From the IMG/VR virus record IMGVR_UViG_3300032235_000724, positions 1-55,845 of that record: DNA of 55,845 bases; one strand, written 5' to 3'. The notes under the pieces are model-generated. The model had not been told where the DNA came from. It did no database searches and was given only the letters and a program-made list of their open reading frames with translations. This stretch comes from a virus (Duplodnaviria; Caudoviricetes). Positions 20,388-50,500 of this stretch are shown here, in pieces; position 1 is the stretch's first letter, and each line of letters opens with the position of its first letter. Both the position numbers and the translations under genes were made by a program.

Positions 20388-20744
20388 ATGGCCACCACTT
20401 CCCAGTACGGTAACTTTCGGCATGGTGCCGTCCTTGTTGGAGGAGGTAATGCTATTCTTGGTATTGGCGTAAATAATGAGAAGTATTGTTCTGTTGGTGC
20501 AAAACATCGTCATCCCAACAAGGGTGTTAGCACCTATCACGCAGAAATTTCTTGTATTTTAGGGATTGAGAGAAAGGCTATTCGTGGTTCTACTATATAT
20601 GTGGCAAGAGCCTCTAAAGCATCAGGGGAAGATCGTATGAGTAAGCCCTGTCCAATGTGTCATGCTGTGCTTGCCTCTCAGGGTGTTAGAAAGGTCTTTT
20701 ACACTGTCGACAAAGACAATGTTGGTTTTTATAGAATATATTAG
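20388..20744 (+). CDS. Zn-dependent cytidine/dCMP deaminase-like protein
   Basis: HGAVLV, HAE, PCPMC motifs. Confidence 0.85.
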   Translation: MATTSQYGNFRHGAVLVGGGNAILGIGVNNEKYCSVGAKHRHPNKGVSTYHAEISCILGIERKAIRGSTIYVARASKASGEDRMSKPCPMCHAVLASQGVRKVFYTVDKDNVGFYRIY

Positions 20745-20752
20745 AGCCTTTA

Positions 20753-20785
20753 TTAACCTTCCTACTATATATTAAAGGAGGTTAA
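20753..20785 (+). promoter_or_regulatory. RBS-sequestering hairpin with CTATATATT motif in the loop
   Basis: TTAACCTTCCT pairs with AGGAGGTTAA (one bulge) just before ATG 20790. Confidence 0.7.
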
Positions 20786-20789
20786 ATCT

Positions 20790-21566
20790 ATGATAGGCAT
20801 TTATCAAATAAAAAATAAAGTGAATGGAAAAATTTATATAGGTAGCTCTGTTAACATAGATAAAAGATGGAAATACCATAGATATTATTTAAATAAAAAT
20901 GAACATCACAATGTTTTGCTACAGCGTTCTTGGAACTTATATGGCGAATCAAATTTTGAATTTGAAATAATAGAACAGTTTGATGACCCAGCCCTCCTAT
21001 TAGAGAGAGAACAACATTATCTGGATACATTACAGACAACAAAACCAGAAAATGGTTATAATCTTTGCCCAAACGCTAATAGTATGAGAGGTTATAAGTA
21101 TTCAGAAGAGCAAAAACAAAAAATGAGCGAGTTAAGAAAAGGCCAAGGAAATCAGCACTATGGCAAGAAACACTCAGAAGAGACAAAGAAAAAGATTGGG
21201 CAAATAAATAGCACAAAAGTCAGAACAGAAGAAACAAAAAGAAAACTTGCCGAAATAACCAGAGAGAGAATGGCAAACTTGAAAGAAACCAACCCAGAAA
21301 AATTTGAAGCGATTGTGTCAAATATAAAAAAAGCAAGAATTGGTAAACCGTTAACAGAACAGGCAAAGAAAAAACTTTCTGAAAGTGCCAAGAAAAGGGT
21401 TGGTGATGATAGCAGCAATGCAAAATTAAATACCGAACAAGTTATAGAAATAAGGAAAGCATATGCTGCTGGTAATAAGATAGGAAAACTGGCAAAACGT
21501 TATAATGTAACAAAAACAACAATAAGTTATATTGTTAAATATAAAAGCTGGAAGCATATTCCATAA
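20790..21566 (+). mobile_element. Free-standing GIY-YIG homing endonuclease with NUMOD3 repeats and C-terminal HTH
   Basis: GIYQIKNKVNGKIYIGSS, LLEREQ, GYN; HSEETKKKI-type repeats; NAKL..EIR..LAKRYNV..W. Confidence 0.93.
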
Positions 21567-21567
21567 T

Positions 21568-21747
21568 AACCTGCCCCGTAGTGCCACAAAGGGTGCAGTT
21601 ATGTATGTTGCCCGTGCAAGTAAAGGCAGTCACGAAGATCGTATGAGTCGGCCTTGTCCCATGTGCCATGCCGTTATGGAGGAGCGCGGGATCAAGGCCG
21701 TTTTTTATTCTGTCGATGACGAGCGTATCGGAACCTACAAGTTTTAG
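21568..21747 (+). pseudogene. Stranded second copy of the deaminase 3' half
   Basis: NLPRSATKGAVMYVARASKGSHEDRMSRPCPMCHAV aligns without gaps to GIERKAIRGSTIYVARASKASGEDRMSKPCPMCHAV; lacks HAE. Confidence 0.85.
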
Positions 21748-21755
21748 AGGATAAA

Positions 21756-22070
21756 ATGAAAAATAAACTACTTTATGAAGCCCTATATAAAGCCTATAAT
21801 ATTGCAGAAGGCCAGTTTTCGGGCATACCGGACTGTTGCATCATGGAGTTCAATAATGGAAGAACTTGGCAAACAATGATCAACAGGATAAAATCTCAAA
21901 AAGAGAAAGCAGAGATTACCAAAAACTGGTCATATGTTCCCTGTCAAGATTGTATTGACAATAAACGATATGGACAAGTAAAAGAAGGCAGTTCGCATAT
22001 TGGAGAATTGCTACTATTCCTAATGGAAAAGGTGACAAAACAAGATGAAGAGAATATTGGTAATCGATAG
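21756..22070 (+). CDS. Hypothetical protein
   Basis: GAGG RBS; GIPDCCI and YVPCQDC motifs. Confidence 0.6.
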   Translation: MKNKLLYEALYKAYNIAEGQFSGIPDCCIMEFNNGRTWQTMINRIKSQKEKAEITKNWSYVPCQDCIDNKRYGQVKEGSSHIGELLLFLMEKVTKQDEENIGNR

Positions 22071-23013
22071 CCTAAATGCATTCGTCAGAGCCTACAGCGC
22101 AGATCCAACCGTAAATGCAAAAGGTATACCCGTTGGCGGCATTCGTGGATATCTAAAAATCCTACAAAAAATGCTAAGAGTTACCAACCCAGACAAAGTT
22201 ATTATTTGCTGGGACGGCGAAGGCGGTAGCAAGAAGCGTAAGAATATGTTTGAGGGTTACAAGGCTGGGCGTAATCCTCTTACAATCAATAGCAGCATCA
22301 AGGCAAGTGCCGAAGACGAACTAAAAAACCGTATCTGGCAGGAAACTCGCCTTGTAGAGTATCTAAATACGCTGCCAATCATACAGATTATGACAGACGG
22401 CGTAGAGGCAGACGATCTTATTGCACTTGTCTGCAAGGACATAAAATATGTTCATTATCAAAAAGTTATTGTAAGCAACGACAAGGACTTTATCCAGTTG
22501 TGCGACAAGGATACAATCCTGTATCGTCCAGTAAAGGAGCAGATTTTAAATATTAAATCTGTTGTTGAAGAATATGGAATACATCCCTACAATTTTGCTG
22601 TTGCTCGGGCTATCGTCGGTGACACATCTGATAATCTACCCGGCGTTAAGGGGGCTGGCCTCGCTACTATTGCAAAACGCTTCCCGTTTCTTGCAGAAGA
22701 AAAAGAATACAGCCTTGACGACATATACCTACACTGTCGCGAACATACGGGCGAAGTCAAGATTTATAAGGGAATATTATCAGAACAAAAACAAATAAAA
22801 CTAAATCACCGTATGATGCAGTTGCAGTATCGCCTTGTCCCAACTGAAACAAAGAAACAAATCTTTAGGGATATAAAGGACGCAGAATGCATATACAATA
22901 AAGACAAGTATATAAAGTACTGTACGGAAGATGGCTTTATGGACATAAACTTCACTGAACTATTCAGCCACATGGAAAAGATACACCTTGAAAACTGCAG
23001 CGAGAAGCAGTAG
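22045..23013 (+). CDS. 5'-3' exonuclease / flap endonuclease (RNase H-like)
   Basis: ILVIDSLN, YKAGR, VEADDLIA, IVSNDKDFIQL, GDTSDNLPGVKGAG. Confidence 0.92.
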   Translation: MKRILVIDSLNAFVRAYSADPTVNAKGIPVGGIRGYLKILQKMLRVTNPDKVIICWDGEGGSKKRKNMFEGYKAGRNPLTINSSIKASAEDELKNRIWQETRLVEYLNTLPIIQIMTDGVEADDLIALVCKDIKYVHYQKVIVSNDKDFIQLCDKDTILYRPVKEQILNIKSVVEEYGIHPYNFAVARAIVGDTSDNLPGVKGAGLATIAKRFPFLAEEKEYSLDDIYLHCREHTGEVKIYKGILSEQKQIKLNHRMMQLQYRLVPTETKKQIFRDIKDAECIYNKDKYIKYCTEDGFMDINFTELFSHMEKIHLENCSEKQ

Positions 23014-23016
23014 TAT
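22988..23016 (+). promoter_or_regulatory. Sigma70-type promoter
   Basis: TTGAAA-N17-TAGTAT upstream of the helicase GGAGG RBS. Confidence 0.55.
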
Positions 23017-23034
23017 GCAACACATGGAGGATAC

Positions 23035-25688: not shown

Positions 25689-26230
25689 GAATGATTTTAA
25701 AAGAAGTATCTGGACGGGATTATGTCTATCACAATTCGCCCAATCCAGATATAGATGTATTCGTGCCAAGACCTTTTTGGCATAGTGAAGATTGGAGCGA
25801 ATCTACAGGAGACGAAACACCAGATTTTATAAAAGATGATGTTGTTTTTGCTATAGATAAAAACAAAGTTCCTTTTTATGCCCTACCAAGGGATACACCT
25901 AGAATACTTTTAAATCAATTTCATGATGCGTCAAAAAAGTTTTTAAAACTGACAAGCGCAAGTATTATGCTCTTGCCAAAAGCAGAGAAAACAAGTATAG
26001 TATCTCATTCTTGGACCGAATATCGTTTTGATAAAAAAGATTTTGAGAAAATGCCAACAGATGAATGGATTTCAAGAAAAGCAGTAAAACCAATTGGTAA
26101 AACATCCCATAAAGATCCTATTTCCTTTTTAAAAAAAAGTGGTTATAAGGTAATTTGGGTTGATAATTTATCAAAGATAGCAAGCCTACTTATTAATAAA
26201 AATCTGCCATTCGATGCAGAAAATATCTAA
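25685..26230 (+). CDS. Hypothetical protein resembling DUF6886 / ADP-ribosyltransferase-like fold
   Basis: YVYHNS..DIDVFVPR, VFAID..Y.LPRDTPRI; N-terminal ILKE leader. Confidence 0.5.
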   Translation: MRMILKEVSGRDYVYHNSPNPDIDVFVPRPFWHSEDWSESTGDETPDFIKDDVVFAIDKNKVPFYALPRDTPRILLNQFHDASKKFLKLTSASIMLLPKAEKTSIVSHSWTEYRFDKKDFEKMPTDEWISRKAVKPIGKTSHKDPISFLKKSGYKVIWVDNLSKIASLLINKNLPFDAENI

Positions 26231-26475
26231 TGATAGAACCAATAGTTATATCTTGCCGGATATGCAAAAAGGAACTACTACAACTAACTGATCAAAAACA
26301 AATAGATTTTCACAATCGTGATATTGCCCCGCATGAACCACGGGGCATTAAAATTTCAGAAATATATATGTGTAGCGAGTGTTCACACAAAATAACAGAA
26401 AAGTGGGATAAAAATGGAAAACGTACAAGGACTAGTAGAAAAGTGGGAACAAAGCGGTCTTCTGGAGGGAGTTAA
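26230..26475 (+). CDS. Small Zn-ribbon protein
   Basis: CRIC and CSEC; start overlaps upstream stop (TAATG). Confidence 0.5.
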   Translation: MIEPIVISCRICKKELLQLTDQKQIDFHNRDIAPHEPRGIKISEIYMCSECSHKITEKWDKNGKRTRTSRKVGTKRSSGGS

Positions 26476-30230: not shown

Positions 30231-30503
30231 ATGAAAGTAACAAAAAGCTATTTAAAACAGCTTATCAAGGAAGAGTTAGAAAATATACCAACAGTTGAGG
30301 ATGATATGGCTGTCTTTGGGTTAAATAAAAATAACTTGGAAGGCGATATTCAAGTGTTAAATATGGTAAAAGCCCAGATCAACGAGGTGATGCAGCAATT
30401 CAACGCCCACTTCAAGAAAAAGCCTGTTATGGAACCGGAAGATCTTTATAACCGTATTGCACATTTAGAAGAACTCATCGAAGAATATATGTCAGAAAGA
30501 TAG
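30231..30503 (+). CDS. Small protein with MKVTKSYLKQLIKEEL leader (putative head-packaged protein)
   Basis: Own promoter motif, RBS and downstream terminator; LIKEE motif. Confidence 0.65.
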   Translation: MKVTKSYLKQLIKEELENIPTVEDDMAVFGLNKNNLEGDIQVLNMVKAQINEVMQQFNAHFKKKPVMEPEDLYNRIAHLEELIEEYMSER

Positions 30504-32619: not shown

Positions 32620-33428
32620 GCCACAGCGAACGGACCCTAGACTTATACTATGACCAACTGGTATTAGGCTCTTGTTTAGGGTCCGTTCTTTTTGCATATC
32701 ACTCAAATACTCCATATATTTATCTACATTTAGACCGCCCCCAATGGTTTCAACAATATAGTTATGATTTCGGACTTGGCTACAGCATGGAACGATCTAT
32801 GGATTACATGCTATCGCATATGGGTCTTGCAGGATTATTACCATTAGACGATAAATGCAGCAGGGCACGAATGATCGATGGCAACAACATTCGTATTGTT
32901 ACAACCGGCGATTTTATTATAAACGTAAAGTTCAATAACCTCTACATTTTCAGCGACTATAATATTGACGGCCTGCCAGACCCAACAGAACAGGTACAGG
33001 AATATGAAGTTATTTATGATAGTTTCCTTGTAAACTGCGCAAAAGAAAGTGTGTTGCAGTTTGATCTATCCGGCGAGCAGTACATAAAAGAGTTGCACCA
33101 CGCAGAAAACAAGAAATCGGCACGAAAAGAGTGCGTACTTGTTTCACACATACCAGCCGGTGCAGAGTACCCAGAATACTTCGTCCGCGCCCGTCTTGAG
33201 AGCATGATTCGGGAAGCGGGTATAAAGAAAAGGCACGGCAGCGAGTTCGTAACGCACATAGAGCGCCAAAAGGCAAACCCTATGACAAACTTTTATACGG
33301 ATTACGGCGGAGTAAAGTTTGTATACCCAGATATAGAAAATATAATAAACTACCGCAATATGCACAAGCGCAATGATTACCTTGGATATCTAAAATGTCG
33401 ATCGCCTCTACCCACCTCGCAGGTATAA
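32616..33428 (+). CDS. Hypothetical protein
   Basis: 270-aa ORF coupled by ATGA overlap; N-terminal LVLGSCLGS faintly Rossmann-like. Confidence 0.6.
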   Translation: MSHSERTLDLYYDQLVLGSCLGSVLFAYHSNTPYIYLHLDRPQWFQQYSYDFGLGYSMERSMDYMLSHMGLAGLLPLDDKCSRARMIDGNNIRIVTTGDFIINVKFNNLYIFSDYNIDGLPDPTEQVQEYEVIYDSFLVNCAKESVLQFDLSGEQYIKELHHAENKKSARKECVLVSHIPAGAEYPEYFVRARLESMIREAGIKKRHGSEFVTHIERQKANPMTNFYTDYGGVKFVYPDIENIINYRNMHKRNDYLGYLKCRSPLPTSQV

Positions 33429-34204
33429 TCTCAACAGTAGGCGCACCGCTGGCATATAATATGCCATGGCACGATTGCCTTATGCCTGTTGGTGAAAACT
33501 ACCACGCAATCGAGCGTGCGGTACATACAGCAGCATCCGCTGGCTGTACAACAATATGGATTGTGCTTGATCGTGCGGCACCACCAATAATAAAAAAGAA
33601 GGTAGGTGAATGGGCATACGACCCCTCGACAATATGGGATCCATATAAGCCCTTTATGAAAAAGGTACAGATCCCAATATATTACTTATGCGTACAACCA
33701 AAAGATATAGGACGCCGCGATAGCCAAGGTTGGGGTGCGCTGTATGCAAGCAAGGTTATATATTATGTAAGCAGTAAAATGAGCATGTGGTCGGCACCAA
33801 AGCGTTATCTTTTTGTTTCACCGTATGGAGTAAGTAACGAGGAAGATATAAAAAATGCCCGAACCTTACTAAAAGGCAAAAATGAAGTTGCGTTTATATA
33901 TGATAATAAAAGTTTCTTGGATAACACACACTTACCCTTTACATTTGGCTGGAGTCAGTATAAGGTGCTGCAACAACATGCACTTGATACCTTCCGCGGC
34001 AAAGAAGATAAACTAAAAAGGATAAGTGAAGTATACAGTCCGCTAAAACTGGAAGAAATGGAAAAGGTATCACTGTCCAGTCATATAGATATAAGCGGCT
34101 GGGACGGGTATCGTGAACTAATGGGTGGACCGGCAATAAAACGACCAGGACACCTTGTAACCCACAAATGGATAGGATTGGTAAAAGATGGAAAACTGGG
34201 ATAA
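33395..34204 (+). CDS. Degenerate nucleotidyltransferase-like (NTP_transferase fold) protein
   Basis: LAGII, CLMPVG..AIERAV..A..AGC..IWIV, C-terminal HIDISGWDGY. Confidence 0.5.
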   Translation: MSIASTHLAGIISTVGAPLAYNMPWHDCLMPVGENYHAIERAVHTAASAGCTTIWIVLDRAAPPIIKKKVGEWAYDPSTIWDPYKPFMKKVQIPIYYLCVQPKDIGRRDSQGWGALYASKVIYYVSSKMSMWSAPKRYLFVSPYGVSNEEDIKNARTLLKGKNEVAFIYDNKSFLDNTHLPFTFGWSQYKVLQQHALDTFRGKEDKLKRISEVYSPLKLEEMEKVSLSSHIDISGWDGYRELMGGPAIKRPGHLVTHKWIGLVKDGKLG

Positions 34205-34601
34205 ATACTTTCTTGATATTGCAAAAACGGTAAGCACCCGTGGGACATGCCCGCGGCTACAAGTAGGCGCTGTCATCATTCGTGACCGCAATATTCTCTG
34301 CACGGGCTACAACGGCTCTATACGCGGTTCCGCGCACTGCAACGAGGTTGGCTGCTACATGGTTGACGGACACTGCGCCCGAACCGTCCATGCAGAAACA
34401 AATGCTATTCTGCAAGCCGCAAAGAACGGCGTTGACATCAACGGATCAACGATATACACAACAGCGTTCCCTTGCTGGAATTGTTTTAAATATTGTGTAA
34501 ACGCAGGAATTTACCGGATTGTATATACAGAAGAATACAAAAAAGATCCAATGGTAATCCAAACAGCAGAATCTTTAAAAATAATTATAGAGAAAATATA
34601 G
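34188..34601 (+). CDS. dCMP deaminase (ComEB-like)
   Basis: WDKYFL, RGTCPRLQVGAVI, TGYNG, VHAETNAI, FPCWNC, NAGI. Confidence 0.92.
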   Translation: MENWDKYFLDIAKTVSTRGTCPRLQVGAVIIRDRNILCTGYNGSIRGSAHCNEVGCYMVDGHCARTVHAETNAILQAAKNGVDINGSTIYTTAFPCWNCFKYCVNAGIYRIVYTEEYKKDPMVIQTAESLKIIIEKI

Positions 34602-34628
34602 TTTCCTCCTATATATTGGAGGAGGAAA
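34602..34628 (+). promoter_or_regulatory. RBS-sequestering hairpin with CTATATATT motif
   Basis: TTTCCTCCT / AGGAGGAAA perfect 9-bp stem before ATG 34633. Confidence 0.72.
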
Positions 34629-34632
34629 TAAA

Positions 34633-35388
34633 ATGAAGATATGTAATATATGTAAAATAGACAAGGAACTTGATTTCTTCGGTGTGCTAAAAACTGCAAA
34701 AGACGGAAGAAATAAAACATGTAAAGAATGTAGAAATAAAAGAAATCACACGAATTCAGATAAAAATAAAAAGAAATATAAAGAATATTATGTAAAAAAC
34801 AAAGAAAGAAAAAAGCAAATCTGGTCAGAAAGTAAAAAGAAATATACTGCAAAAAATAAAGAAAGAAAAAAAGAGTATGATAGAGAATATGCAAAAAGAC
34901 CGGAAGTTATAAAAAGAATAAAAAATTATCATAGAACTGAAGAAGTAATAGAACGGAGAAAGAAACGCAATCAAAGACCTGATATAAAGAAAAAAGCAGC
35001 AGAATATATTAAAAAGAAAATGCAGGATCCTAAAAAACATCTTGATAAAGTTTTCTCCCAAGGTATTAGAGAATCTCTAAAAAAGAAAAAGATATTTAAA
35101 AATAATAAAAAATGGGAAACTATATTGGGTTATTCTATACTGGATCTTATGTCTCACTTGGAATCAAAATTTACCCCCGAAATGAGCTGGGATAACTATG
35201 GAAAATATTGGCATATTGATCACATAAAACCAAAAAGTTTATTTATATATTCGTCTATGGAAGACGAAGAATTTAAAAAATGCTGGAGTCTTGATAACTT
35301 ACAGCCATTAGAAGCGGTGGAGAATATAAGAAAAGGAAATAAATATCTTGAACCAGCCAAACTTGACAAAGACATGCTCTCGTTGTAA
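34633..35388 (+). mobile_element. HNH homing endonuclease
   Basis: N-terminal CNIC/CKEC, Lys-rich linker, MSWDNYG..WHIDHIKP..NLQPL..ENIRKG. Confidence 0.88.
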
Positions 35389-35587
35389 GATAGAAAAACA
35401 ATCAGACGAATTTAAAAAAATAAAAAAAACACAAAAAATTCTATCTCATTGTAATGATTGTGAAAAGAAAGATCGTTTAGAGAAAAAAGAAAAATATAAA
35501 AAATATCGACAAAAGTATAATGCAAAAAAAAGAGAAGAAAAGCAAAAAAAGAAATACGAAGAACTTAAACTTAAATACGAAACATAA
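35348..35587 (+). pseudogene. Fragment resembling an HNH endonuclease N-terminal Zn finger
   Basis: KTCSRCKIEK..F...CNDC parallels KICNICKIDK..F...CKEC of the upstream gene; no nuclease domain. Confidence 0.55.
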
Positions 35588-40998: not shown

Positions 40999-41195
40999 TG
41001 CCATTAAATATTATTATATTTATGAACGATGAAGGCGATATCCTTGACTATGTTTCAAGGAATAACACAAGCGATCATATCTTCTCTATCGCCCGTGAAC
41101 TTGCAAAGACTCACGGCGAAGAAGTAACGCCCTACTACGCCAGTATCGAAGTCGGTGACGAGTATACGGATAAAATCCACAAGGATCTTAAATGA
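40998..41195 (+). CDS. Hypothetical protein
   Basis: GAGGAG RBS, TAATG coupling. Confidence 0.55.
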   Translation: MPLNIIIFMNDEGDILDYVSRNNTSDHIFSIARELAKTHGEEVTPYYASIEVGDEYTDKIHKDLK

Positions 41196-41371
41196 AGACT
41201 TTACTTCTTGTCTCGATGATGCTACTGTCTGCTTGTGGCGATGGAACGCCCGATCCCGAAGGAGATGAATATGTAAAGTGTTCTAACTTCTGTGGCGAGG
41301 ATGGCGTAAGGGAGTTCAAGAAGAGTGATAGCGGATATAACTGCTATTGCTATAATATGCGGAAGGCGTAA
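41192..41371 (+). CDS. Small lipoprotein with CxxxC..CxC (59 aa, not in ORF track)
   Basis: MKTLLLVSMMLLSAC lipobox; CSNFC and CYC. Confidence 0.65.
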   Translation: MKTLLLVSMMLLSACGDGTPDPEGDEYVKCSNFCGEDGVREFKKSDSGYNCYCYNMRKA

Positions 41372-41373
41372 AC

Positions 41374-41577
41374 ATGACAGACAAGGAACTAAAAGATATT
41401 GAGGCAGGACTTAAACGTTGGCATTCTATGTCAACGGAAACAGGTCAGAAACTACTTGACGAGATTTATAGATTGAAACACCATATTGGTATGGACCAAA
41501 TGCATCTCAACTTGCTTTATAAGGAGCGGGACGAAGCGATCCAGCAACTTGAACTATGGCAGGGGAATAAATCATGA
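41374..41577 (+). CDS. Hypothetical protein, Ead/Ea22-like
   Basis: MTDKELKDIE..LLDEIYRL..ERDEA. Confidence 0.55.
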   Translation: MTDKELKDIEAGLKRWHSMSTETGQKLLDEIYRLKHHIGMDQMHLNLLYKERDEAIQQLELWQGNKS

Positions 41578-41810
41578 CGCGTGAAGAAGAAGAGCAGTTC
41601 CTATTTGATAAAATCGTAGCGCTCAAACACCTTTATGAAGAACTTGACAGTCTTGTGAAGAGCGGGTATGATGGTCCCTTCATTGGCGAGGAAATCCGTC
41701 CTCTAATGGAAGCCTACTTCAAGGCAAAATGGGGTAATAAAAATGCAGACATTTCCGACAATCTACAAGCAGACAAAGGGAGGCAAGACGCAGGAGTGGA
41801 TAGCAAGTAA
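41574..41810 (+). CDS. Hypothetical protein
   Basis: ATGA coupling. Confidence 0.55.
   Translation: MTREEEEQFLFDKIVALKHLYEELDSLVKSGYDGPFIGEEIRPLMEAYFKAKWGNKNADISDNLQADKGRQDAGVDSK
41743..41799 (+). pseudogene. Stranded 5' end of DNA ligase (frame stays open to 42018 in unrelated sequence)
   Basis: MQTFPTIYKQTKGGKTQEW aligns without gaps to ligase N-terminus MNKLPEIYKKTKTGATQTW. Confidence 0.78.
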
Positions 41811-42064
41811 AAGTTATCCTATTTATTTCTCGCAGTCATTTTCTTTTCCTCCGCGACATATAAAGAAAGCGCTTTTTCCATCTTTTCGCCACAGGAAAGC
41901 AGATTATAGAAATGGGCACGCTTATAGCCAAGCGTGCCATTCTTTTGAATGGCTATGCTTTAGATTCTCAATAGTTTGGAGTAATCCGAAAGATAAGCAA
42001 GATTGTCAATATTGTTAAATATTGGCGGACAGATATTTTTAAATATAAAAAAATAATATGGACA

Positions 42065-42099
42065 GTTCTCCTATAACCAACTATATATTATAGGAGGAC
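42065..42099 (+). promoter_or_regulatory. RBS-sequestering hairpin with CTATATATT motif
   Basis: GTTCTCCTATAA / TTATAGGAGGAC (12 bp, one G-U) before ATG 42106. Confidence 0.72.
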
Positions 42100-42105
42100 A
42101 AAAAA

Positions 42106-42633
42106 ATGTCACAATTAGAAAATTTACAAGGGAAAACATTTGGTTATCTTTCTGTATTAGAAATAGGCCAAAAAAAGTTTTCTAGAACGCATTGGAAATG
42201 TCTATGCATCTGTGGTAATACCAAAGATATAATGGCAAAACATTTAAAAACTGGTGCGATAACAAGCTGCGGTTGTATGAAGCTTGCAAAGGGAAAAAAG
42301 TCTAGGACTTGGAAAGGTCACGGAGATATTAGCGCACATTATTGGTCTAGAATAAAAAGATGTGCTTCCGAAAGAAATCTAGAGTTCTCCATAGCAATAG
42401 AAGAGATATGGAATTTGTTTATAAAACAAAATAAAAAATGCGCCTTGACTGGGCTTGACATCTCAATAGAAGGGGAGCATACTGCATCTCTTGACAGGGT
42501 TGATAGTAAAAAAGGTTATGAAATCTCTAATGTACAATGGGTTCACAAAGATGTAAATCTAATGAAGATGGATTTTGACCTTAATGAATTTTTCTCTTAC
42601 TGCAAGTTAATCACGGAGTTTAATAGACTATGA
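42106..42633 (+). mobile_element. HNH-type homing endonuclease
   Basis: GKTFGYLSV, WKCLCICG, SCGC; CALTG, SLDRVDSKKGYEISNVQWVHKDVNLMK. Confidence 0.88.
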
Positions 42634-43745
42634 ACAAACTTCCAGAAATTTATAAGAAGACTAAAACTGGTGCGACTCAAACTTGGTCTGTAGAGATTGA
42701 TAATGATCGCTATAGGACTTATAGTGGTCAGCTTGACGGAAAAATTCAAATTAGCGAGTACACGATCTGTCAGCCGAAGAACCTGGGTAAGAAGAACGCC
42801 ACGACCGCCGAGGAACAGGCGGTCATTGAAGCCGAGGCTCTTCGCAAGAAGAAACTGGAGCATGGCTATTTTGAGGATATTGGCAACATTAACCAGAGGC
42901 AGTATTTTGAGCCTATGCTTGCCAAGGACTACCTTGATTACAAGGACGAGATCAAGTTTCCTGTTTATAGCCAGCCCAAGTTGGACGGCGTTCGCTGCAT
43001 TGTAAATAAGGATGGCATGTGGACCCGCAACGGCAAGGAAATCATTAGCGCGCCGCATATCCGTAAGAGCCTCCAGCGTGTTTTTGATATGGAGCCAGAA
43101 CTTATCCTTGACGGTGAACTTTATAACCATGAATTGAAAAATGATTTCAATACTATCGTCTCGCTTATCAAGAAGACAAAGCCTACCGACGAGGATTTGA
43201 AGGAAAGCGCAGAGAAGATCCAGTATCATATTTATGATATTCCCTCTGCACAGAACTATTTTCCAACATTCGGTAGCCGTCTAAAGTCACTTGCAAGTTA
43301 TTGGTATAATAATGTTATGCCCGATTGCTGTGTGCTTGTTCGTACCGATGTTGCCATCAATGATGCTGCCATTGAGCGTCTTTATGGCGAATATGTTGAC
43401 GACGGTTACGAAGGTCAAATGATCCGTTTGGATAAGCCCTATGAGAACAAGCGCAGCAAGTTTCTCCTCAAGCACAAGACCTTCCAAGACGAGGAGTTTA
43501 CGATTCTTGATATTGTTGAGGGCGAGGGTAACCGTACCGGCGCAGCAGGATATATGACCTTTCAGCGGGAAGGTAAGCCGTTCAAAAGCAACATCAAGGG
43601 TACATGGGAGTATCTTGTTGACATTCTCCAAAATCGTGATAGTATCATTGGCAAGAAGGCAACAATAAAGTATTTCAATCTTACACCAGACGGTATCCCG
43701 AGGTTCCCATATGTCATCAACATCAACCGCGCTCAATATGAGTGA
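42630..43745 (+). CDS. ATP-dependent DNA ligase
   Basis: PMLA, QPKLDGVRC, LDGELY, YHIYD, YEGQMIR, KRS..LLK, G.PRFP. Confidence 0.93.
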   Translation: MNKLPEIYKKTKTGATQTWSVEIDNDRYRTYSGQLDGKIQISEYTICQPKNLGKKNATTAEEQAVIEAEALRKKKLEHGYFEDIGNINQRQYFEPMLAKDYLDYKDEIKFPVYSQPKLDGVRCIVNKDGMWTRNGKEIISAPHIRKSLQRVFDMEPELILDGELYNHELKNDFNTIVSLIKKTKPTDEDLKESAEKIQYHIYDIPSAQNYFPTFGSRLKSLASYWYNNVMPDCCVLVRTDVAINDAAIERLYGEYVDDGYEGQMIRLDKPYENKRSKFLLKHKTFQDEEFTILDIVEGEGNRTGAAGYMTFQREGKPFKSNIKGTWEYLVDILQNRDSIIGKKATIKYFNLTPDGIPRFPYVININRAQYE

Positions 43746-44001
43746 TATACGCGTTGGCAATCTGGTACAGTATTTTATTGACTATACTGGTGAGTGGCAC
43801 GATATGGTTATTGTAGATATCGTGCCTCCAAGAACGCGTAAACTATATTCAATGCATGATACCCGTAACTGGGTCGTCGTTATGACCTATATAGAAGACC
43901 TGCAAAATACAAAAATGTATTTTCATCGCAGGCATATGCTATGGACATTTAAAGATCGTTTCCGTAAGTTGGAGAATCCATATGACAATGGTGGAATTTA
44001 A
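43738..44001 (+). CDS. Hypothetical protein
   Basis: Overlaps ligase stop; IRVGNLV start. Confidence 0.5.
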   Translation: MSDIRVGNLVQYFIDYTGEWHDMVIVDIVPPRTRKLYSMHDTRNWVVVMTYIEDLQNTKMYFHRRHMLWTFKDRFRKLENPYDNGGI

Positions 44002-44212
44002 TGACGAAGTCCAAGTAAGGATGACAAAGCATCGTGATTGCCGCACGGGACAGGCAATGTTTCTTGTTGCTTGGGACCATGTAGGCGAGAAAATCAACCA
44101 TATCCTTGGGTCAGATCGTGACCCGTTCTATAACGACGAACGAATCCCAGAATTCCTTGTTTATCTTGTTGATAATAACTTTTTTAGCGATATGCAAAGG
44201 CAGGAGACATAA
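43982..44212 (+). CDS. Hypothetical protein
   Basis: GGAG RBS; R.GQA.F and DPFYND motifs. Confidence 0.6.
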   Translation: MTMVEFNDEVQVRMTKHRDCRTGQAMFLVAWDHVGEKINHILGSDRDPFYNDERIPEFLVYLVDNNFFSDMQRQET

Positions 44213-44213
44213 A

Positions 44214-45098
44214 ATGGGCTACATGAAGATCGACAATCTCTATAAAAACAACCAAATCATGAACTTCAAAAAGTGTTATGCGCTTGAAAAGGTGCATGGC
44301 ACCAGCGCACACATTCAATGGAGCAAGGGCAAGCTATCTTTTTATAGTGGTGGCGAAAGCCATGATCCATTTGTTGCCCTGTTTGACCAAGAACGCCTAA
44401 CTGAATACTTTAGGAGCCGGGAATACGACGAGGAATGCGTTGTACGAATCCATGGCGAAGCCTATGGCGGCAAGCAACAGGGTATGAGTAAGACTTATGG
44501 CCCTAAGTTGCATTTTATTGTTTTTGATGTCCTCATTGGTGGATCTTGGCTCGATGTACCGGCGGCAGAAAGTTATGCAACTGCACTTGGGCTTGAGTTT
44601 GTACCATATGAACTTGTACCCACCGAAGTAGAAGACCTAAACCGTGAGCGTGACAGGGATTCTATTGTTGCCATTCGTCGTGGTATGGGCGAGGGCCATA
44701 TTCGTGAAGGTGTTGTCTTACGCCCACCGTTTGAAGTAAAAAACAATGGCGGTGGTCGATGCATGAGCAAGTATAAGCGTGACGAGTTTAGAGAACATAA
44801 GTCTCCACGGGATATTGACCCCGATAAACAAAAAGTTCTTGACGATGCCGCCGCCATTGCTGAAGAATGGTGCGTACCTATGCGCCTTGAGCATGTCATT
44901 GGACAACTGACCGTTGACGGCAAGGAACCAGACATGAAGGATATCCCACGCCTTATCTCCACTATGGTAAATGATATTTATGTGGAGGGTAAGGGTGAAA
45001 TCGTTGAGGGTGACGAGGTTCGTAAGGCCATTGGCACCCGTACAGTCAAACTTTTCAAGGCCAGACTGGCAAAAAAAGCCGGTCTAACCTCCGAATAG
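44214..45098 (+). CDS. RNA ligase (Rnl2-like)
   Basis: EKVHGTS, IHGEAYG, FIVFDV, EGVVLRP, KYK; AGGAG RBS. Confidence 0.85.
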   Translation: MGYMKIDNLYKNNQIMNFKKCYALEKVHGTSAHIQWSKGKLSFYSGGESHDPFVALFDQERLTEYFRSREYDEECVVRIHGEAYGGKQQGMSKTYGPKLHFIVFDVLIGGSWLDVPAAESYATALGLEFVPYELVPTEVEDLNRERDRDSIVAIRRGMGEGHIREGVVLRPPFEVKNNGGGRCMSKYKRDEFREHKSPRDIDPDKQKVLDDAAAIAEEWCVPMRLEHVIGQLTVDGKEPDMKDIPRLISTMVNDIYVEGKGEIVEGDEVRKAIGTRTVKLFKARLAKKAGLTSE

Positions 45099-45101
45099 AG
45101 A

Positions 45102-45110
45102 CTATTTATC
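45102..45110 (+). promoter_or_regulatory. Putative phage late promoter motif
   Basis: CTATTTATC ending 3 nt before ATG 45114. Confidence 0.5.
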
Positions 45111-45113
45111 GTT

Positions 45114-45902
45114 ATGAAACTTATATTAAAAGAGCGCAAGATCTTAAAAGAGAATGTATCGTCCGAACCAAGGACAAGTTGGAAGGTAACAACAGACCCA
45201 TCCAACTTTCTTGCATTAGCTAATGCCGATACTACTGGTAATGTCCAAAGCAGAGCATCGGCGTATGGAAAATTTGATCCAGATAAAGCAGGCCATATGC
45301 AACTCGTTATTGATCCTACATATGGTAAAGTAACATCGCACGATGGGCGTGGTAGGTCGCAGACAGCAGTAAACTCAGGCGTAAAAGAAGTAGAGATTAC
45401 GATAAGAATAAATACAGAAAAGGAAAGCAGAACTTTTTCATGGGATAAGTTACCAGAATACTTTACACCAGAAGATGGTAGAGAAGGAAGTGTTCCAAAG
45501 TCCTCTTTTAAGCTTAAAGAGGAAGAAAAAGAAGCTAACTTTGAAGATATTCTAAAACTAGGCGGTAAAGAAAAAGTATTTCAATATGAAGCCATAGAAA
45601 GCAAGCGCGGTCTATATGTAAGACAAGATCCAAATAAGGATGCACCTAACTGGGTCGGTGCAAGATATTCAGAATACTTTACTCCAATGTTACGAAAATC
45701 AGCGGGTATGCCAGAAATAGAGGGCGGGCTACCAATTCCTGTTATGGAGGCTGCAAAACAATATCGTGATCTTGTAAATAAACAATATAAGTTTGTAGAC
45801 GAGCAAGGCGAACTAAAAATAGTACAAAATAATCCTCCTTTTGGCACAACGCTTAAGTTTGATCGCCAAGCAGTTGGAAATGTAACAATGTCCACAAGAT
45901 AA
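45114..45902 (+). CDS. Protein with ILKE leader and ParB/Srx-like domain
   Basis: MKLILKERKILKEN; VTSHDGRGR..A...GVKEVEI resembles the ParB-N DGHHR region. Confidence 0.55.
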   Translation: MKLILKERKILKENVSSEPRTSWKVTTDPSNFLALANADTTGNVQSRASAYGKFDPDKAGHMQLVIDPTYGKVTSHDGRGRSQTAVNSGVKEVEITIRINTEKESRTFSWDKLPEYFTPEDGREGSVPKSSFKLKEEEKEANFEDILKLGGKEKVFQYEAIESKRGLYVRQDPNKDAPNWVGARYSEYFTPMLRKSAGMPEIEGGLPIPVMEAAKQYRDLVNKQYKFVDEQGELKIVQNNPPFGTTLKFDRQAVGNVTMSTR

Positions 45903-45911
45903 AAATAGAAC

Positions 45912-45962
45912 TTTACAAGGCTTAGACGGGATGGTACACTCTGTACTGTCCCGTTTTCTTTT
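45912..45962 (+). promoter_or_regulatory. Overlapping sigma70 promoter and terminator
   Basis: TTTACA-N17-TACACT; hairpin GACGGGATGGTACA / TGTACTGTCCCGTT plus T-rich tail. Confidence 0.7.
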
Positions 45963-45972
45963 GGAGGTACGC

Positions 45973-46206
45973 ATGGATGATCGTAACTGGCAGGAAGAAT
46001 ACAGTAAACTTAAGATTAACTTTGACAGGCTTGACAGAATGAACGATGTCCTGTATAGGTACTGGTACACCGTTCACAAAAAGAAGGGTGGCGTGTGGAC
46101 GCACGAAATCACAGAAGCCCGCGAAGCAGTTGAAAAATACTTTGAGGAACTTGAAAATGAATATCAAAGACGACGAAACGCCGAAACACCGAAGCAAGAA
46201 GGATAA
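45973..46206 (+). CDS. Hypothetical protein
   Basis: GGAGG RBS, ATG 45973. Confidence 0.6.
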   Translation: MDDRNWQEEYSKLKINFDRLDRMNDVLYRYWYTVHKKKGGVWTHEITEAREAVEKYFEELENEYQRRRNAETPKQEG

Positions 46207-46468
46207 GCGTAGATGGTGCGGAGGAAAACCTGGGCGTGAACATGATCCTATGTGGCAGCATAGTAAAAAAACAGGTGGAAGCCCTAATTCCGTGTGTTGG
46301 CTAGAATATATCTGCCAACGCTGTCATAAATCATTAGATACATTTTGGAGATTTGAGGCTTGGCCGCAATCTCTTTCGCATCATCATACATATGAACAAC
46401 CGGAGGTTGGCTCACGCGAACCCCTAAAGAAAAGAGAAAAAGATGGCGGACCTAAAGTGGACAAGTGA
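46157..46468 (+). CDS. Hypothetical protein with Zn-binding motif
   Basis: KKDKRRWCGGKPGREH..CQRC; GAGG RBS. Confidence 0.6.
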   Translation: MNIKDDETPKHRSKKDKRRWCGGKPGREHDPMWQHSKKTGGSPNSVCWLEYICQRCHKSLDTFWRFEAWPQSLSHHHTYEQPEVGSREPLKKREKDGGPKVDK

Positions 46469-46712
46469 AGCGGACGATTATTATAAAGAGGTACATTTTC
46501 TAAAAGTTGGTAATTTTGAGGTTGTGATCAACCAGATTGACGAAAATAACTTTGACTGGTTTGTAAACAATCATGATGACAACGGCGATATCTTGTGGCA
46601 TAGTCTCATTGAAGGCACGGGCAGCAGCCTACGCCAATGTAAAAAAGACTCACTTGAGTGCATGGAAAAGTTAGCCAAGGATTTTAAAGTATACGCAAAG
46701 GAGACGAAGTAA
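46443..46712 (+). CDS. Hypothetical protein
   Basis: Packing; C-terminal G..SLRQCKK resembles 40681. Confidence 0.55.
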   Translation: MADLKWTSEADDYYKEVHFLKVGNFEVVINQIDENNFDWFVNNHDDNGDILWHSLIEGTGSSLRQCKKDSLECMEKLAKDFKVYAKETK

Positions 46713-46729
46713 ATATACATGACCACATT

Positions 46730-46777
46730 TCTCCCTTTAGATACTACTTATTGTATGGTAATGTATCTAAAGGGAGA
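46730..46777 (+). promoter_or_regulatory. RBS-sequestering hairpin with CTACTTATT motif
   Basis: Perfect 15-bp stem TCTCCCTTTAGATAC / GTATCTAAAGGGAGA before ATG 46786. Confidence 0.78.
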
Positions 46778-46785
46778 TTCTTATT

Positions 46786-47577
46786 ATGCGTGAAGAAACA
46801 AAAGCAAGAAGAGAACAGGGTCGTCATAAGATTTGTCCAAACTGTCAAGTAGAGTTTTGTTCGCTGACGCCTACTGGATATAGGACTCCAAAAGAAGTTG
46901 CATGCACAAAAGAGTGCGCATACAAATATGGCGTACAGATTCGGTACGATAAAGGTTCTTATGTTAGAACAGAAGAGGCCATAAAAAAAGATTTTGCAAC
47001 GAAAGTCTCAAAGAACTCCGAGCATGGTAAAAAATGGGCAAAGACTCTACAAGATAGAAAAGATCGTGGCCTCGGTAACTACGATAAAGAAAAATATAAA
47101 CATTGGTCACAGACTCCCAAGGGAAGACAAAAGATAAGTGAAACTCATAAAGGTCGTGAAGTTTCTGCGTACGCAAGGAAGCTTATGAGCGAGAGAATGA
47201 AAAAACTCTTGCATGACAACCCAGAAAAAGTATATTCAAATGCTAATGGTGGCAAAAGAGCAGATCTAAACAATCAATACTTTCGTAGTAACTGGGAAGC
47301 GAACTACGCAAGAATATTGAACGAACAAAATATATCATGGCAATATGAACCAGAGACTTTTGATTTATCTAATGGAACAACATACACGCCAGATTTCAAG
47401 ATAGGCGATAATAAATTCGTTGAGATAAAAGGCTGGTACGATAAAGACTCTCGACAAAAAATATCTTCATTTTTGAAAGAATACCCGCAATACGAGCTTG
47501 ACTTGATTGGCGAGTCAGAGTACTATTCTCTTCGTTCGCTATTCAAACATAAAATAACAGGATGGGAAGGTAAATAA
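46786..47577 (+). mobile_element. Putative homing endonuclease: Zn finger, NUMOD3-like repeat and PD-(D/E)XK nuclease
   Basis: CPNC..CTKEC; KISETHKG; FRSNWEAN..YEPETF..YTPDF..VEIKGW. Confidence 0.8.
47498..47526 (+). promoter_or_regulatory. Sigma70-type promoter inside the nuclease 3' end, upstream of dnaE
   Basis: TTGACT-N17-TACTAT. Confidence 0.55.
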
Positions 47578-50500
47578 TGTCTGAGAGAAAGAAGCCGTCA
47601 ATTCCTTTTGCTTCACTTCATTCACACGATACATTTTCGATTTTTGATGGCCTCGGTTATCCAGAGGAACATTGCGAATTTGCCTATAAAAATGGCCTCG
47701 TTGGATATGCTCAAACTAATCACGGAAACATGAATGGTTTTGGTTATGCTTTTCAGCAAGCTAAAAAAATGCAAGCAGATGGGCGTAGTGACTTCAAGAT
47801 TATTTATGGTATTGAAGCCTATGTCCATCCCTCTATTGAGGAATGGAAGGTTGAGCGCGAGAAGCACAAGGAAGATGCAAAACTTGCCAAGCAGGTTGAC
47901 GAAGATGTCGGCCTTGTTGTAGAGGATGAAAATGAAAGCAAACGTGTTGTCAAGTCCACGCTCAACCAGCGCAGCCATCTTGTACTTACAGCCCAAAACC
48001 AAACCGGCCTCAACAACCTTTTTAGACTCGTTAGCAACTCTTATCGTGGTGACAACTTTTATCGCTTTCCTCGGATGGATTATAACGATCTTCGCAAGAA
48101 TAGTGACGGGATTATTGCTTCAAGTGCATGTATCGGTGGCGTGCTGGGCAATGATTACTGGTGCAATAGAGATCTGGGCGATAAGGCGGTTCTTGAGGCA
48201 ATGAGCAAGACCGTAGAATCCATGATGGATATCTTTGGTGATCGCTTTTATGGCGAACTCCAATGGGCCAACTATGCCGAGCAACATATCATTAATCAAA
48301 AGATTATTGAGTTGAGCAAGGTTTATGGATTCAAACTAATTAGCACCTGCGATGCCCACTTTCCTAATCCAGATGTCTGGAAGGACCGTGAAATCTATAA
48401 GATGATCGGCTGGATGGGTAAGAAAAAGGACGAACAGAAAATCGATGCGCTACCTTCAACACTTGCGGAAATGGAGTATCAACTTTATCCTAAAAATGGA
48501 GATGAGTTATTTGCAGCATACCGACATTTTTCACAGCGTCTTGGATTTACTTACGATGATCGGCTTGTCGAAGACTCTATTACTCGCACCGTTGATATTG
48601 CACATAACCGTATCACTTCTTACACACCCGATACAAACATTAAACTTCCGTCCTTTGTTGTTCCCGAAGGTGAAACGGCTGATACTGCCCTTGCTAAACT
48701 TGCGGTTACTTCCTTAAAGGATAGCGGACTATATAAGGATCAAACCTATATTGACCGTCTAAAGGAAGAACTCCATACAATCAAGGATCGTGGATTCTCT
48801 AAATACTTCCTTACAATGAAGACGATTACGGATAAGGCAAAGGCCAACCAACTTTGCGGCGATGGTCGTGGAAGCGGCGCTGGTTCGCTTGTTTCATATC
48901 TTCTTGATATTACGGCGGTTGACCCAATCAAGTATAAACTACAGTTCAGCCGGTTTATCCGTAAGACGGATAAGTCATATCCCGATATTGACTTTGATGT
49001 CAGCGACCCAATGGAACTAAAGGAAATGTTTATTCGGGAGTATGGGGAGAACACGGTTGTACCTATCAGCAACTTCAATACCTTAAAGGCTCGTTCGCTT
49101 ATCAAGGATATTAGCAAACTATATGATATCCCATTTCAAGAGGTCAACGATGTCACCAGTAAAATGATCTTTGAGGCCAAAGGACCGGCAATGAAAGAGC
49201 ATGGTATGACTGCCGGTGCATATGAGCCTACTTGGGAAGAACTAAAAAAATATAGCCCTACGCTTGCCAACTATCTCCTAAAGTATCCCGATGTTGCGAC
49301 CCATGTAGAAACCCTACAACGCCAGATCAGGAGCATCAGTCGTCATGCTGGCGGTGTATTATTTGCAGATAACCTTGATGAAAAGATGCCGCTTATCAAT
49401 AGCGGTGGTGTAGTCCAGACTCCTTGGACGGAAGGACAAACTGTACGCCATCTTGAGCCGCTTGGATTTATTAAGTTTGATATCCTTGGTCTTGCTTCTC
49501 TCCGAATGTTAGAGACGGCCATCAGCCATATTCTAAAAAACCATCACGGCATAAAGGAACCAACCTTTGCGGATATCAAGAAATATTATGACGAGAACCT
49601 GCATAACGAGAAACTAAATCTTGACGATCAAGCCGTATACGAAAATGTTTTCCATAATGGCAACTTCCTTGGGACATTCCAGTTTACAAACGATGGCGCA
49701 CAGGATTTCTGTAAGCAAAGTAAGCCAAGAAGCATTGTAGATATTGCGGCTATTACGAGTATTTATCGTCCAGGTCCGCTGTCCGCAAATGTAGATAAAA
49801 AGTATGTAGAGGCAAAGGAAAACCCAAATGCCGTACATTATCTAAATGATATCGTAGAGGAGGTTACAAAGGAGACTTATGGATTTATTGTTTTCCAAGA
49901 GCAACTTTCGCTACTTGCACATAAACTTGGACGAGATATTTCGCTTGACGAAGGCAATGAACTACGCAAGGTCTTAACGAAGAAGGGTACTGGCAAGGAG
50001 GCACAGGTAAAGGCCGCACTATATGATAAGTTTATTGCAGGCTGCGTAGACAAGGGTATCCACGAAAAGGATGCAGATAAACTCTGGAAAACAATGGAGT
50101 TTTTCAGCGGTTATGGCTTCAATCTTGCCCACGCCGTATGTTATTCAATCCTGTCATATCAATGTGCATGGTTGTGGCACTATTACCCAGCCGAATGGGC
50201 GTGTGCATTTCTTGATAAGGAACCAGAAGACCGTAAGGAAAGTGCTATTTCGGCAGTCAAGGGATATGGGCTAAAGATCAAGCCACTGGATATCAATATG
50301 TCTGGTACTGTATGGACCGTCGCAGAGGGCGACGATAAAACTCTTGTCCAGCCCCTATCGTCAATCAAGGGTCTTGGAGATACCGCTATTAGTGAGATTA
50401 TGAATAACCGTCCATTCAAGGATATTGAGGACTTGCTATTCAACGACAATGTGAAGTATAACAAGCTAAACAAGCGGGGTCTTGACGCCCTGTCCAGAAG

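Follow-up and report, generated by a model that had tools for sequence, protein, structure and literature searches.

The window analysed here, the whole of an IMG/VR virus record of 55,845 bases that is classed as linear and estimated to be 25% complete, carries four nuclease genes of low G+C (0.28-0.34), each of which abuts a gene for a conserved enzyme: a CDA-fold deaminase, a deoxycytidylate (dCMP) deaminase, a DNA ligase and a DnaE-type DNA polymerase. At several of these sites the end of the enzyme gene that adjoins the nuclease is foreign to the rest of that gene, and it is the make-up and probable movement of these nuclease-plus-gene-end arrangements that concern us. An earlier note, made from the letters alone, had placed the four nucleases beside these four genes, and profile matches agree with it; the families recognized are a GIY-YIG domain combined with NUMOD3 and helix-turn-helix (HTH) domains, two HNH-type nucleases by PHROGs and one Phage_endo_I member above the Pfam cut-off. 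Among GenBank phages no close DNA relative was detected by megablast, and the best DnaE match by tblastn is below 31% identity. The relatives used for comparison come from IMG/VR, namely G001/G002 (loci L003, L004, L092 and L093; about 87% nucleotide identity to the window), G005 (loci L084 and L094; about 82-88%) and the more distant G004 (loci L055, L083 and L158). Close relatives lack three of the four nucleases, the first being missing in L003/L004, the second in G001 and the third in L084, and all four show presence/absence polymorphism at a fixed site among related genomes.

The first of the four lies behind the CDA-fold deaminase gene, where the following features are found:

20388..20744, + strand: chimeric CDA-fold deaminase, 118 amino acids (PF00383, profile positions 17-101 of 102)
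20537..20744, + strand: foreign recoded replacement 3' end of the deaminase (by identity, tree and G+C)
20790..21566, + strand: GIY-YIG + NUMOD3 + weak HTH homing endonuclease gene (PF01541, 6.2e-14)
21568..21747, + strand: stranded native deaminase 3' end, codon 59 to stop (by match to L003)

The deaminase is complete and keeps its HAE and PCxxC motifs, with a native core that ends at about 20536 and a foreign 3' end that begins at about 20537. The GIY-YIG gene that follows has an I-TevI-like architecture and a G+C of 0.318, and its best IMG/VR relative is 50% identical, in the catalytic domain only. Beyond the nuclease the deaminase end occurs a second time: residues 60-116 are repeated at 21568-21747 with 56% identity (tblastn E 6.6e-21), the DNA core of the repeat (20628-20668 versus 21634-21674) is 85% identical, and this stranded copy remains an open frame (21532-21747). 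Positions 1-4161 of L003 correspond to window 16386-20548 and positions 4175-4367 to window 21568-21758, with the result that the window has about 1,019 extra bases at the deaminase, where L003 has no nuclease. The deaminase core is identical to that of L003 in 54 of 54 residues (18 synonymous and no nonsynonymous codon differences), and the stranded end matches it in 55 of 59 residues, with 16 synonymous and four nonsynonymous changes among the 20 codons that differ. The attached end, on the other hand, shares 53% of its residues with L003 and at best 67%, with L005, among 80 related loci. Separate trees of the core and the ends, as suggested in the earlier note, give a concordant picture: the window core is identical to that of L003, and in a quick tree of the C-terminal end the stranded copy pairs with L003 (Shimodaira-Hasegawa-like approximate likelihood ratio test, SH-aLRT, 99), whereas the attached end falls outside that pair but within a wider five-row clade (98). 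The G+C of the attached end is likewise distinct, at 0.40 versus 0.52 for the stranded and native parts.

The junction itself bears on where the nuclease might cut. Five synonymous differences from L003 occupy the consecutive codons Y-H-A-E-I at 20537-20549, the first of them 28 nt upstream of the insertion point, compared with a spacing of about 10 nt elsewhere in the core; the stranded copy begins at codon 59, a few codons past the H-A-E zinc-site motif. I-TevI, which has the same domain architecture as the GIY-YIG gene product, cuts 23-25 nt from its insertion site. The recoding at the junction is what would be expected of a cut about 25-30 nt upstream of the insertion site, with the interval between the two always co-converted. 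We also considered an I-TevI-like operator upstream of the GIY-YIG gene and rejected it, its by-eye likeness to the empty target not being convincing. As a separate observation, L003 has an additional ORF (open reading frame) of 179 amino acids (L003 4275-4814) between the deaminase and the following gene, which is missing in the window; therefore, the region 3' of the deaminase is variable even apart from the nuclease cassette.

The mirror image of this arrangement is found at the DNA ligase, where it is the 5' end of the gene that is affected:

41743..41800, + strand: stranded native ligase 5' end, 19 codons (by identity to L084)
41801..42060, no strand assigned: spacer of about 260 bp inside the ligase cassette (G+C 0.338)
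42106..42633, + strand: HNH nuclease gene, 175 amino acids (phrog_374, 3.3e-24; no Pfam match)
42630..43745, + strand: ATP-dependent DNA ligase, whose first ~41 codons (42630-42752) are a foreign 5' end (by identity to L084)

The repeat of the ligase 5' end at 41743-41800 comprises 19 codons (tblastx E 3.9e-4). Thus, the two diverged duplicates of gene ends that the earlier note had described, one of a 3' end and the other of a 5' end, are both borne out. The stranded start is identical to the start of the L084 ligase in 19 of 19 residues, and the five nucleotide differences between them are all synonymous in the ligase frame. Positions 949-1559 of L084 correspond to window 41189-41800 and positions 1628-6617 to window 42753-47752, with 952 window bases replacing 68 bases of L084 in between. 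Over its first 40 residues the attached ligase agrees with L084 in 22, compared with 37-40 of every 40 from residue 81 on, and the G+C is 0.35 in the attached 5' end versus 0.46-0.50 in the native part. The stranded copy ends one base past codon 19, and the foreign tract runs to about codon 41. The stop of the nuclease gene overlaps the new ligase start (ATGA), with a GGAG lying within the end of the nuclease gene; the best IMG/VR relatives of this nuclease are 45-51% identical. The earlier note had named, as an outcome that would refute it, empty alleles matching the attached ends; at the deaminase (55/59) as well as the ligase (19/19) they match the stranded ends and not the attached ones.

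Two further observations concern this neighbourhood. A gene at 41574-41810 overlaps the stranded ligase start in another frame; the same five nucleotide differences alter four residues in this frame, and its C-terminal tail differs from that in L084 owing to the insertion. Retention of the stranded piece may be favoured by this overlap. A more distant phage has, at some remove from its ligase, a further nuclease candidate: a 177-residue HNH-type ORF with NUMOD-like repeats (L088 2812-3345) lies about 650 nt upstream of the ligase, which suggests that the ligase neighbourhood may attract nuclease genes in several lineages.

At the dCMP deaminase the features are as follows:

34188..34601, + strand: dCMP deaminase, 137 amino acids, with a diverged, replaced 3' end that makes up the final 52 codons, 34442-34601 (by comparison with G001)
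34633..35388, + strand: HNH/His-Me nuclease, 251 amino acids (phrog_1035 'endonuclease VII', 3.1e-17)
35348..35587, + strand: 79-residue ORF, possible remnant of a nuclease N-terminal finger (phrog_2340 1.6e-5, phrog_1035 5.8e-5)

Where the window has 34442-35583 (1142 bp) G001 has 173 bp and no nuclease. Up to residue 85 the dCMP deaminases of the window and of G001 agree; beyond it they differ, both C-termini keeping the PCxxC motif, and the G+C of the replaced end is 0.319 as against 0.52 for the core. In the window no stranded dCMP deaminase end was found beyond about 20 nt at the very end of the gene; the 3' end thus appears to have been replaced without leaving a stranded copy. The nuclease matches the Pfam family His_Me_b4a2 at 2e-4, below the cut-off, with an H-x-D-H...N motif visible in the translation, and it has an N-terminal CxxC...CxxC finger, Lys-rich repeats and a G+C of 0.282. 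The 79-residue ORF that follows (G+C 0.216) is not a piece of the dCMP deaminase. It weakly resembles the N-terminal zinc-finger part of an HNH/endonuclease VII-type nuclease; its likeness to the adjoining nuclease has a BLASTP E of 0.011, and it may, on this weak assignment, be what is left of an earlier invader whose nuclease was of this type. To the left of the nuclease, over 32750-34250, identity to G001 falls to 0.59-0.78 from a background of 0.85-0.92.

The fourth nuclease lies in front of the polymerase gene:

46786..47577, + strand: endonuclease-I-like PD-(D/E)XK nuclease, 263 amino acids (PF05367 Phage_endo_I, 31.3 bits against a cut-off of 29.1)
47577..51008, + strand: DnaE-type DNA polymerase III alpha (profile matches); its start overlaps the nuclease stop

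A P-D...E-I-K motif is visible in this nuclease. It sits between an 89-residue ORF and DnaE, two genes that overlap directly in L160, and it is present in G005 at 95% amino acid identity and missing in L160, L161, L162 and G004. We read it as a free-standing gene of the ordinary homing type that lies in the intergenic gap ahead of DnaE. The nuclease also lies at the left edge of a block, window 46500-51000, that is 93-98% identical to G005, while identity to G005 on both sides of the block (43750-46500 and 51000-51250) is 0.61-0.77; by analogy with phage ICP1, the block would fit a recently exchanged tract bounded by a nuclease gene. Between the stop of the 89-residue ORF and the nuclease hairpin described below lies ATGACC (46719-46724), which equals the first two DnaE codons of L160; we considered it as a relic of the DnaE start and rejected it as too short to count. 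In G005 the six letters are ACGACC.

It is in G004 that the DnaE gene itself appears to have acquired a substitute end. There the ligase stop overlaps an ATG that opens the peptide MTERKKPSV, which then runs into a stop; it is followed by a hairpin containing a Shine-Dalgarno (SD) sequence and start codon (-15.1 kcal/mol), a GIY-YIG+NUMOD3 gene and a DnaE that starts MSDKKKVSIPF. In three nuclease-free relatives DnaE starts MTDIKKPS, MTENKKPS and MTERKKPS. The stranded DnaE start of G004 matches these relatives, and G004 therefore has, at DnaE, the layout in which a 5' end is replaced, combined with a nuclease whose fold is different.

Filled and empty deaminase alleles were also sought in four public sequencing runs, by comparing contigs with window 19800-22400 at 85% likeness. 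In the likely source run (X1) one contig spans the whole of this stretch without a difference, and a 280-nt contig joins 20548 to 21580. In a run from another study (X3) a 1030-nt contig connects 20542 with 21568 through 19 letters of the empty allele (side 255), and in a further run (X4) 20549 is joined to 21568 (side 21, a weak join) and 20551 to 21585 (side 63). Contigs with and without the cassette are thus both present and, therefore, filled and empty deaminase alleles coexist in nature. In a different sample of the same study as X1 (X2), cassette-covering contigs differ from the window at 6 of 353 and 10 of 512 positions, compared with 28 of 358 for a contig across the left junction (20284-20641) and 32 of 236 for the upstream flank; in this second background the cassette looks younger than its flanks. 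Contig depths in the runs are low, at 3-6, and in X2-X4 the contigs cover the stretch in part.

Taken together, a full-length chimera in which a native core is joined to a foreign end adjoining the nuclease is found for the deaminase, the dCMP deaminase and the ligase, and not for DnaE of the window, and a stranded native end that lies beyond the nuclease and matches the empty alleles is found for the deaminase, the ligase and the DnaE of G004, and not for the dCMP deaminase. We regard it as likely that these are intron-less homing endonuclease cassettes and that in three of the four the unit comprises a nuclease gene with translational control of its own, together with a substitute end, of foreign origin, for the neighbouring gene. 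Each attached end is as poor in G+C as its nuclease, an argument for a joint arrival of the two from a donor richer in AT. The differences in the stranded ends are mostly synonymous; the stranded pieces therefore belonged to functional genes during most of the period since divergence from the relatives, and the insertions are recent. The proposal of the earlier note that such elements restore the gene with a recoded end instead of splicing thus holds for the deaminase and the ligase cassettes; it is plausible for the third, where the end is replaced without a stranded copy, and fails for the fourth, where no replaced end was detected; the layout recurs in a relative. The note had also seen in them one family of cassettes, and this part has to be given up: the nucleases are unrelated, and their shared design is convergent, with no common descent behind it.

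In terms of mechanism, the GIY-YIG cassette, about 20537-21567, would have entered after deaminase codon 59, placing a new 3' end upstream of the nuclease and stranding the native 3' end downstream, and the HNH cassette, 41801-42752, would have entered after ligase codon 19, supplying a new start and about 41 codons downstream and stranding the native start upstream. The second HNH nuclease would have replaced the last 52 dCMP deaminase codons outright (34442-35583). In a mixed infection, the nuclease would cut a cassette-free allele near the insertion point, and the recombination machinery of the phage, for which a UvsX-like gene at 17779 and a gp32-like gene at 16974 are candidates, would repair the break from the cassette-bearing genome. 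We infer that homology would guide this repair through the gene core on one side and through the stranded fragment and the sequence beyond it on the other, such that the cassette would home as a unit. The outcome would be a complete chimeric gene whose recoded junction no longer holds the target, that is, an attached end resistant to the nuclease.

The alternative that survives best, which we nevertheless consider improbable, is that these are ordinary free-standing nuclease genes and that each ORF insertion was an accident of illegitimate recombination, in which one-sided homology duplicated a gene end, with no movement of end and nuclease as units. Several observations favour it or weigh against cassettes that home as units. 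The structure is rare: a second deaminase fragment was found at none of 80 other deaminase loci and a stranded ligase start at none of eight other ligase loci, leaving this window as its only occurrence among 80 deaminase and nine ligase loci, and this rarity leaves one-off accidents possible. Among distant nuclease homologues, flank-to-flank similarity was seen at one of 37 distinct loci (identical nuclease ORFs collapsed, three dropped for short flanks). That one, L129, looks like a DNA repeat: a direct repeat of about 75 nt (1661-1737 and 4358-4434), matching in all three frames, flanks a GIY-YIG homologue at a distance. A donor cassette was likewise not found, since IMG/VR holds none (the relatives of the GIY-YIG nuclease and of the HNH nuclease at 42106 reach at most 50-51%), and for the attached deaminase end the next best protein is 61% identical among 12 matches in a search of 5.8 billion proteins. 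The ligase cassette contains 260 bp of unexplained filler, as the spacer at 41801-42060 matches none of the fetched loci by blastn or tblastx and nothing in Rfam, and 68 bp of the empty allele are missing and not duplicated. The extra 179-residue ORF in L003 3' of the deaminase raises the question of whether homology there may have been lacking at invasion. For the dCMP deaminase, ordinary co-conversion next to a nuclease gene that stands free accounts for the data just as well, no replaced DnaE end was detected in the window, and the right junction was not bridged in X2, where the contig ends 8 nt past it.

Accidents sit poorly with other results. Within this phage group the layout is seen at three different genes (the deaminase, the ligase and the DnaE of G004), each time with a different nuclease, and every attached end has the G+C of its nuclease. 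In X2 the cassette is about 98% identical and its flanks 86-92%, as would follow from a recent transfer into another background. Moreover, even a first accident of this kind would yield a unit able to home later with two-sided homology.

That metagenome assembly stitched together two strain variants of the deaminase or ligase region and so produced false duplicates is very unlikely. The window is indeed a metagenome-assembled contig, linear and 25% complete, and cassette-free variants coexist with it in X1. However, no more than 2-3 nt are common to the empty allele and the junction of the nuclease stop with codon 59, which offers no k-mer path, the left junction is bridged by a contig from the independent sample X2, both loci have a complete attached ORF that is in frame, and the identical chimeric deaminase protein of 118 residues is present on two contigs, the longest of 192,879 nt. 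Finally, although phage nucleases of these families are often intron-encoded and the stranded deaminase end is still an open frame (21532-21747), the idea that the nucleases reside in self-splicing introns, or that the host genes are split and the stranded pieces still used, can scarcely be entertained, because Rfam yields no intron match over the whole window at gathering thresholds or around both cassettes at E up to 1, because the host ORFs are complete unspliced (the attached deaminase contains an entire CDA domain and ends in a stop of its own, and the attached ligase is full length with its own start), and because, in contrast to a gene split of the Aeh1 nrdA type, the stranded pieces overlap the attached ends in alignment, duplicating and not complementing them.

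The translational control of the nucleases deserves separate consideration. The earlier note had described the same hairpin and CTA(T/C)WTAT unit in front of each nuclease gene, and all four sites do fold, with the SD sequence in the 3' arm of the hairpin and the motif in the loop (significance from 200 dinucleotide shuffles per site):

20753..20785, + strand: hairpin 1, CTATATAT at 20765-20772 in the loop, AGGAGG SD paired; -8.8 kcal/mol, z -1.1, 27/200 shuffles as good
34601..34629, + strand: hairpin 2, CTATATAT in the loop; -13.4 kcal/mol, z -3.2, 0/200 shuffles as good
42065..42099, + strand: hairpin 3, CTATATAT in the loop; -16.0 kcal/mol, z -4.4, 0/200 shuffles as good
46730..46777, + strand: hairpin 4, CTACTTAT in the loop, AGGGAG SD paired; -25.8 kcal/mol, z -7.2, 0/200 shuffles as good

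Three of the upstream sites share the sequence CC-N-CTATATATT-N-AGGAGG (repeat family D5), and in G005 hairpin 4 shows one compensatory change from G-C to U-A. The motif CTAYWTAT occurs 21 times in the window against 11.6 expected, a number reached by one of 100 shuffles. Of the matches, 17 are on the + strand; seven of these 17 fall within the listed intergenic gaps, together 4.9% of the window and some of them ahead of tail genes, and a further one within a 15-nt gap. It also precedes the genes at 30231, 45114, 53797 and 54754, with a near-match before the tail gene at 5420. On read-through transcripts the hairpin would hide the ribosome-binding site of the nuclease gene, and the promoter-like CTATWTAT in its loop would start a shorter transcript that lacks the hairpin, thereby delaying nuclease synthesis as in T4.

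Several observations count against a control unit peculiar to the cassettes. Hairpin 1 is not significant alone, as 27 of 200 shuffles fold as well, and hairpin 4 has a different motif, CTACTTAT. The full unit is also present (1634-1691) before a tail-tube-like gene (1692-4283, 863 amino acids), where CTATATAG lies in the loop of the hairpin CCUCUAU...AUAGAGG (-11.7 kcal/mol, z -2.2) and the SD in the 3' arm. The unit is thus not specific to nuclease genes and is a general promoter-like element of the phage combined with SD sequestration, and not a nuclease hallmark. In three cases the motif is only 1-4 nt from the SD; by analogy with T4, a start point would then fall at or inside the SD, the motif being too close to it. 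The candidate promoter motif, CTATWTAT, is also unlike the T4 late motif, which is TATAAATA.

The device itself has close counterparts in T4-like phages. In the available text of the review of T4 homing (PMC2988022), an RBS-sequestering hairpin (RBS, ribosome-binding site) is described for I-TevI/II/III, segB and Aeh1 mobE, with late-promoter transcripts that cannot form it, and the T4 non-nuclease genes soc, e, 25 and 26 share it, as the tail gene at 1692 does here. According to the same text, the free-standing T4 seg and mob nucleases lie beside genes of replication and nucleotide metabolism, are polymorphic and spread by break repair and co-conversion, all of which resembles what we see here; insertions into ORFs of T4-like phages, however, split the gene into two polypeptides (Aeh1 nrdA, T4 gene 39/60, phage 25 gene 43; PMC2988022), whereas here a substitute end keeps the gene whole. 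The strings 'duplicat' and 'pseudogene' do not occur in the text of this review as available (PMC2988022). In ICP1 and other phages, too, identity to relatives shifts sharply at nuclease genes (Barth et al. 2023, PMC10448857), and the account in the main paper, supplements aside, includes no replacement-end cassettes or stranded fragments at these boundaries (PMC10448857).

The nearest parallels are instead eukaryotic, for which reason the design as such cannot be called little-described, as the earlier note had it. In the available account of the yeast WHO elements (Coughlan et al. 2020, PMC7282813), the functional unit consists of a nuclease gene and a resistance-conferring 3' region, the old fragment serving as repair homology. 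As described there for Torulaspora/Lachancea, the WHO elements likewise produce a chimeric full-length gene with the old 3' end left beyond the nuclease and no splicing, and trees of the 5' and 3' parts of the gene disagree with each other, as they do here (PMC7282813). Unlike the nucleases studied here, the WHO proteins resemble inteins, and their site of action is the nuclear FBA1 gene of yeast, in meiosis (PMC7282813). In the window, Pfam and PHROGs give GIY-YIG, HNH and PD-(D/E)XK folds and not homologues of the intein-like WHO/HO proteins; the elements, though they would work in the manner of WHO elements, do not belong to that family and are GIY-YIG and HNH cassettes in a phage, and clusters from repeated invasion were not seen, except for the possible remnant at 35348. 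The mitochondrial mobile ORFs with duplicated C-termini, reported for Allomyces atp6 and Glomus atp6, atp9, cox2 and nad3 (Beaudet et al. 2013, PMC3630166), are similar in that, in the text available, an endonuclease (LAGLIDADG or GIY-YIG) comes with a foreign C-terminus while the native C-terminus lies downstream and matches a close relative; in Glomus atp9 the native end is fully replaced, as in the dCMP deaminase here (PMC3630166). These ORFs differ in being organellar, often fused in frame and of 3' polarity only, with no SD-hairpin control described in that text (PMC3630166).

Thus, what the window holds would be a phage form of an already known end-replacing design, one apparently undescribed in phages. 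In the full-text literature, with subscription journals and supplements outside the search, we found no description of end-replacing cassettes in phages, and in the available text of a 2026 bioRxiv follow-up on WHO bacteriophages appear only in a general sentence. Neither did this literature yield a description of 5'-end replacement, for which a precedent in subscription journals or supplements is possible. On balance we lean towards regarding these cassettes as a distinct class of phage homing element, which would invade ORFs without an intron, intein or gene split, supply a recoded substitute end in two mirror polarities (3' and 5'), have arisen convergently around GIY-YIG and HNH nucleases and include a 5' polarity that has not been reported for the WHO and mitochondrial elements in the accounts cited above.

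The usual view is that a homing endonuclease can persist in a phage genome given a splicing element, an intergenic site or a gene that tolerates being split, and a cassette that rebuilds the gene it cuts would enlarge the range of sites that can be invaded. They would also account for conserved phage genes that end in a short foreign segment with sharp borders, segments that could mislead gene trees, pangenome clustering and annotation, as stranded fragments are called as small ORFs. If this is true, the elements would directly drive the evolution of chimeras among phage genes of replication and nucleotide metabolism, and they would link phage elements mechanistically to the yeast WHO/HO lineage and the fungal mitochondrial mobile ORFs. 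In the 5'-replacement form, the selfish gene would capture the point at which translation of an enzyme begins, with the ribosome-binding site and new start of the host gene lying in the 3' end of the nuclease gene. Further, the junctions predict target sites for the four uncharacterised nucleases.

As for the rest of the window, nearly all of its genes lie on the + strand. Profile matches in Pfam and PHROGs point to tail sheath, tube and baseplate proteins, and the window also codes for a UvsX-like recombinase, a gp32-like single-stranded DNA-binding protein, a DnaB-like helicase, ribonucleotide reductase and thymidylate synthase, in addition to DNA ligase, RNA ligase and the DnaE polymerase. 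This combination of genes marks the window as a fragment of a large environmental myovirus. One further difference from the relatives lies away from the four nucleases: about 570 bp (25693-26262) between a thioredoxin-like ORF and the large subunit of ribonucleotide reductase, a classic site for mobile genes, are missing in G001. This segment contains a 185-residue ORF that has no PHROG match and in which no nuclease signature was seen.

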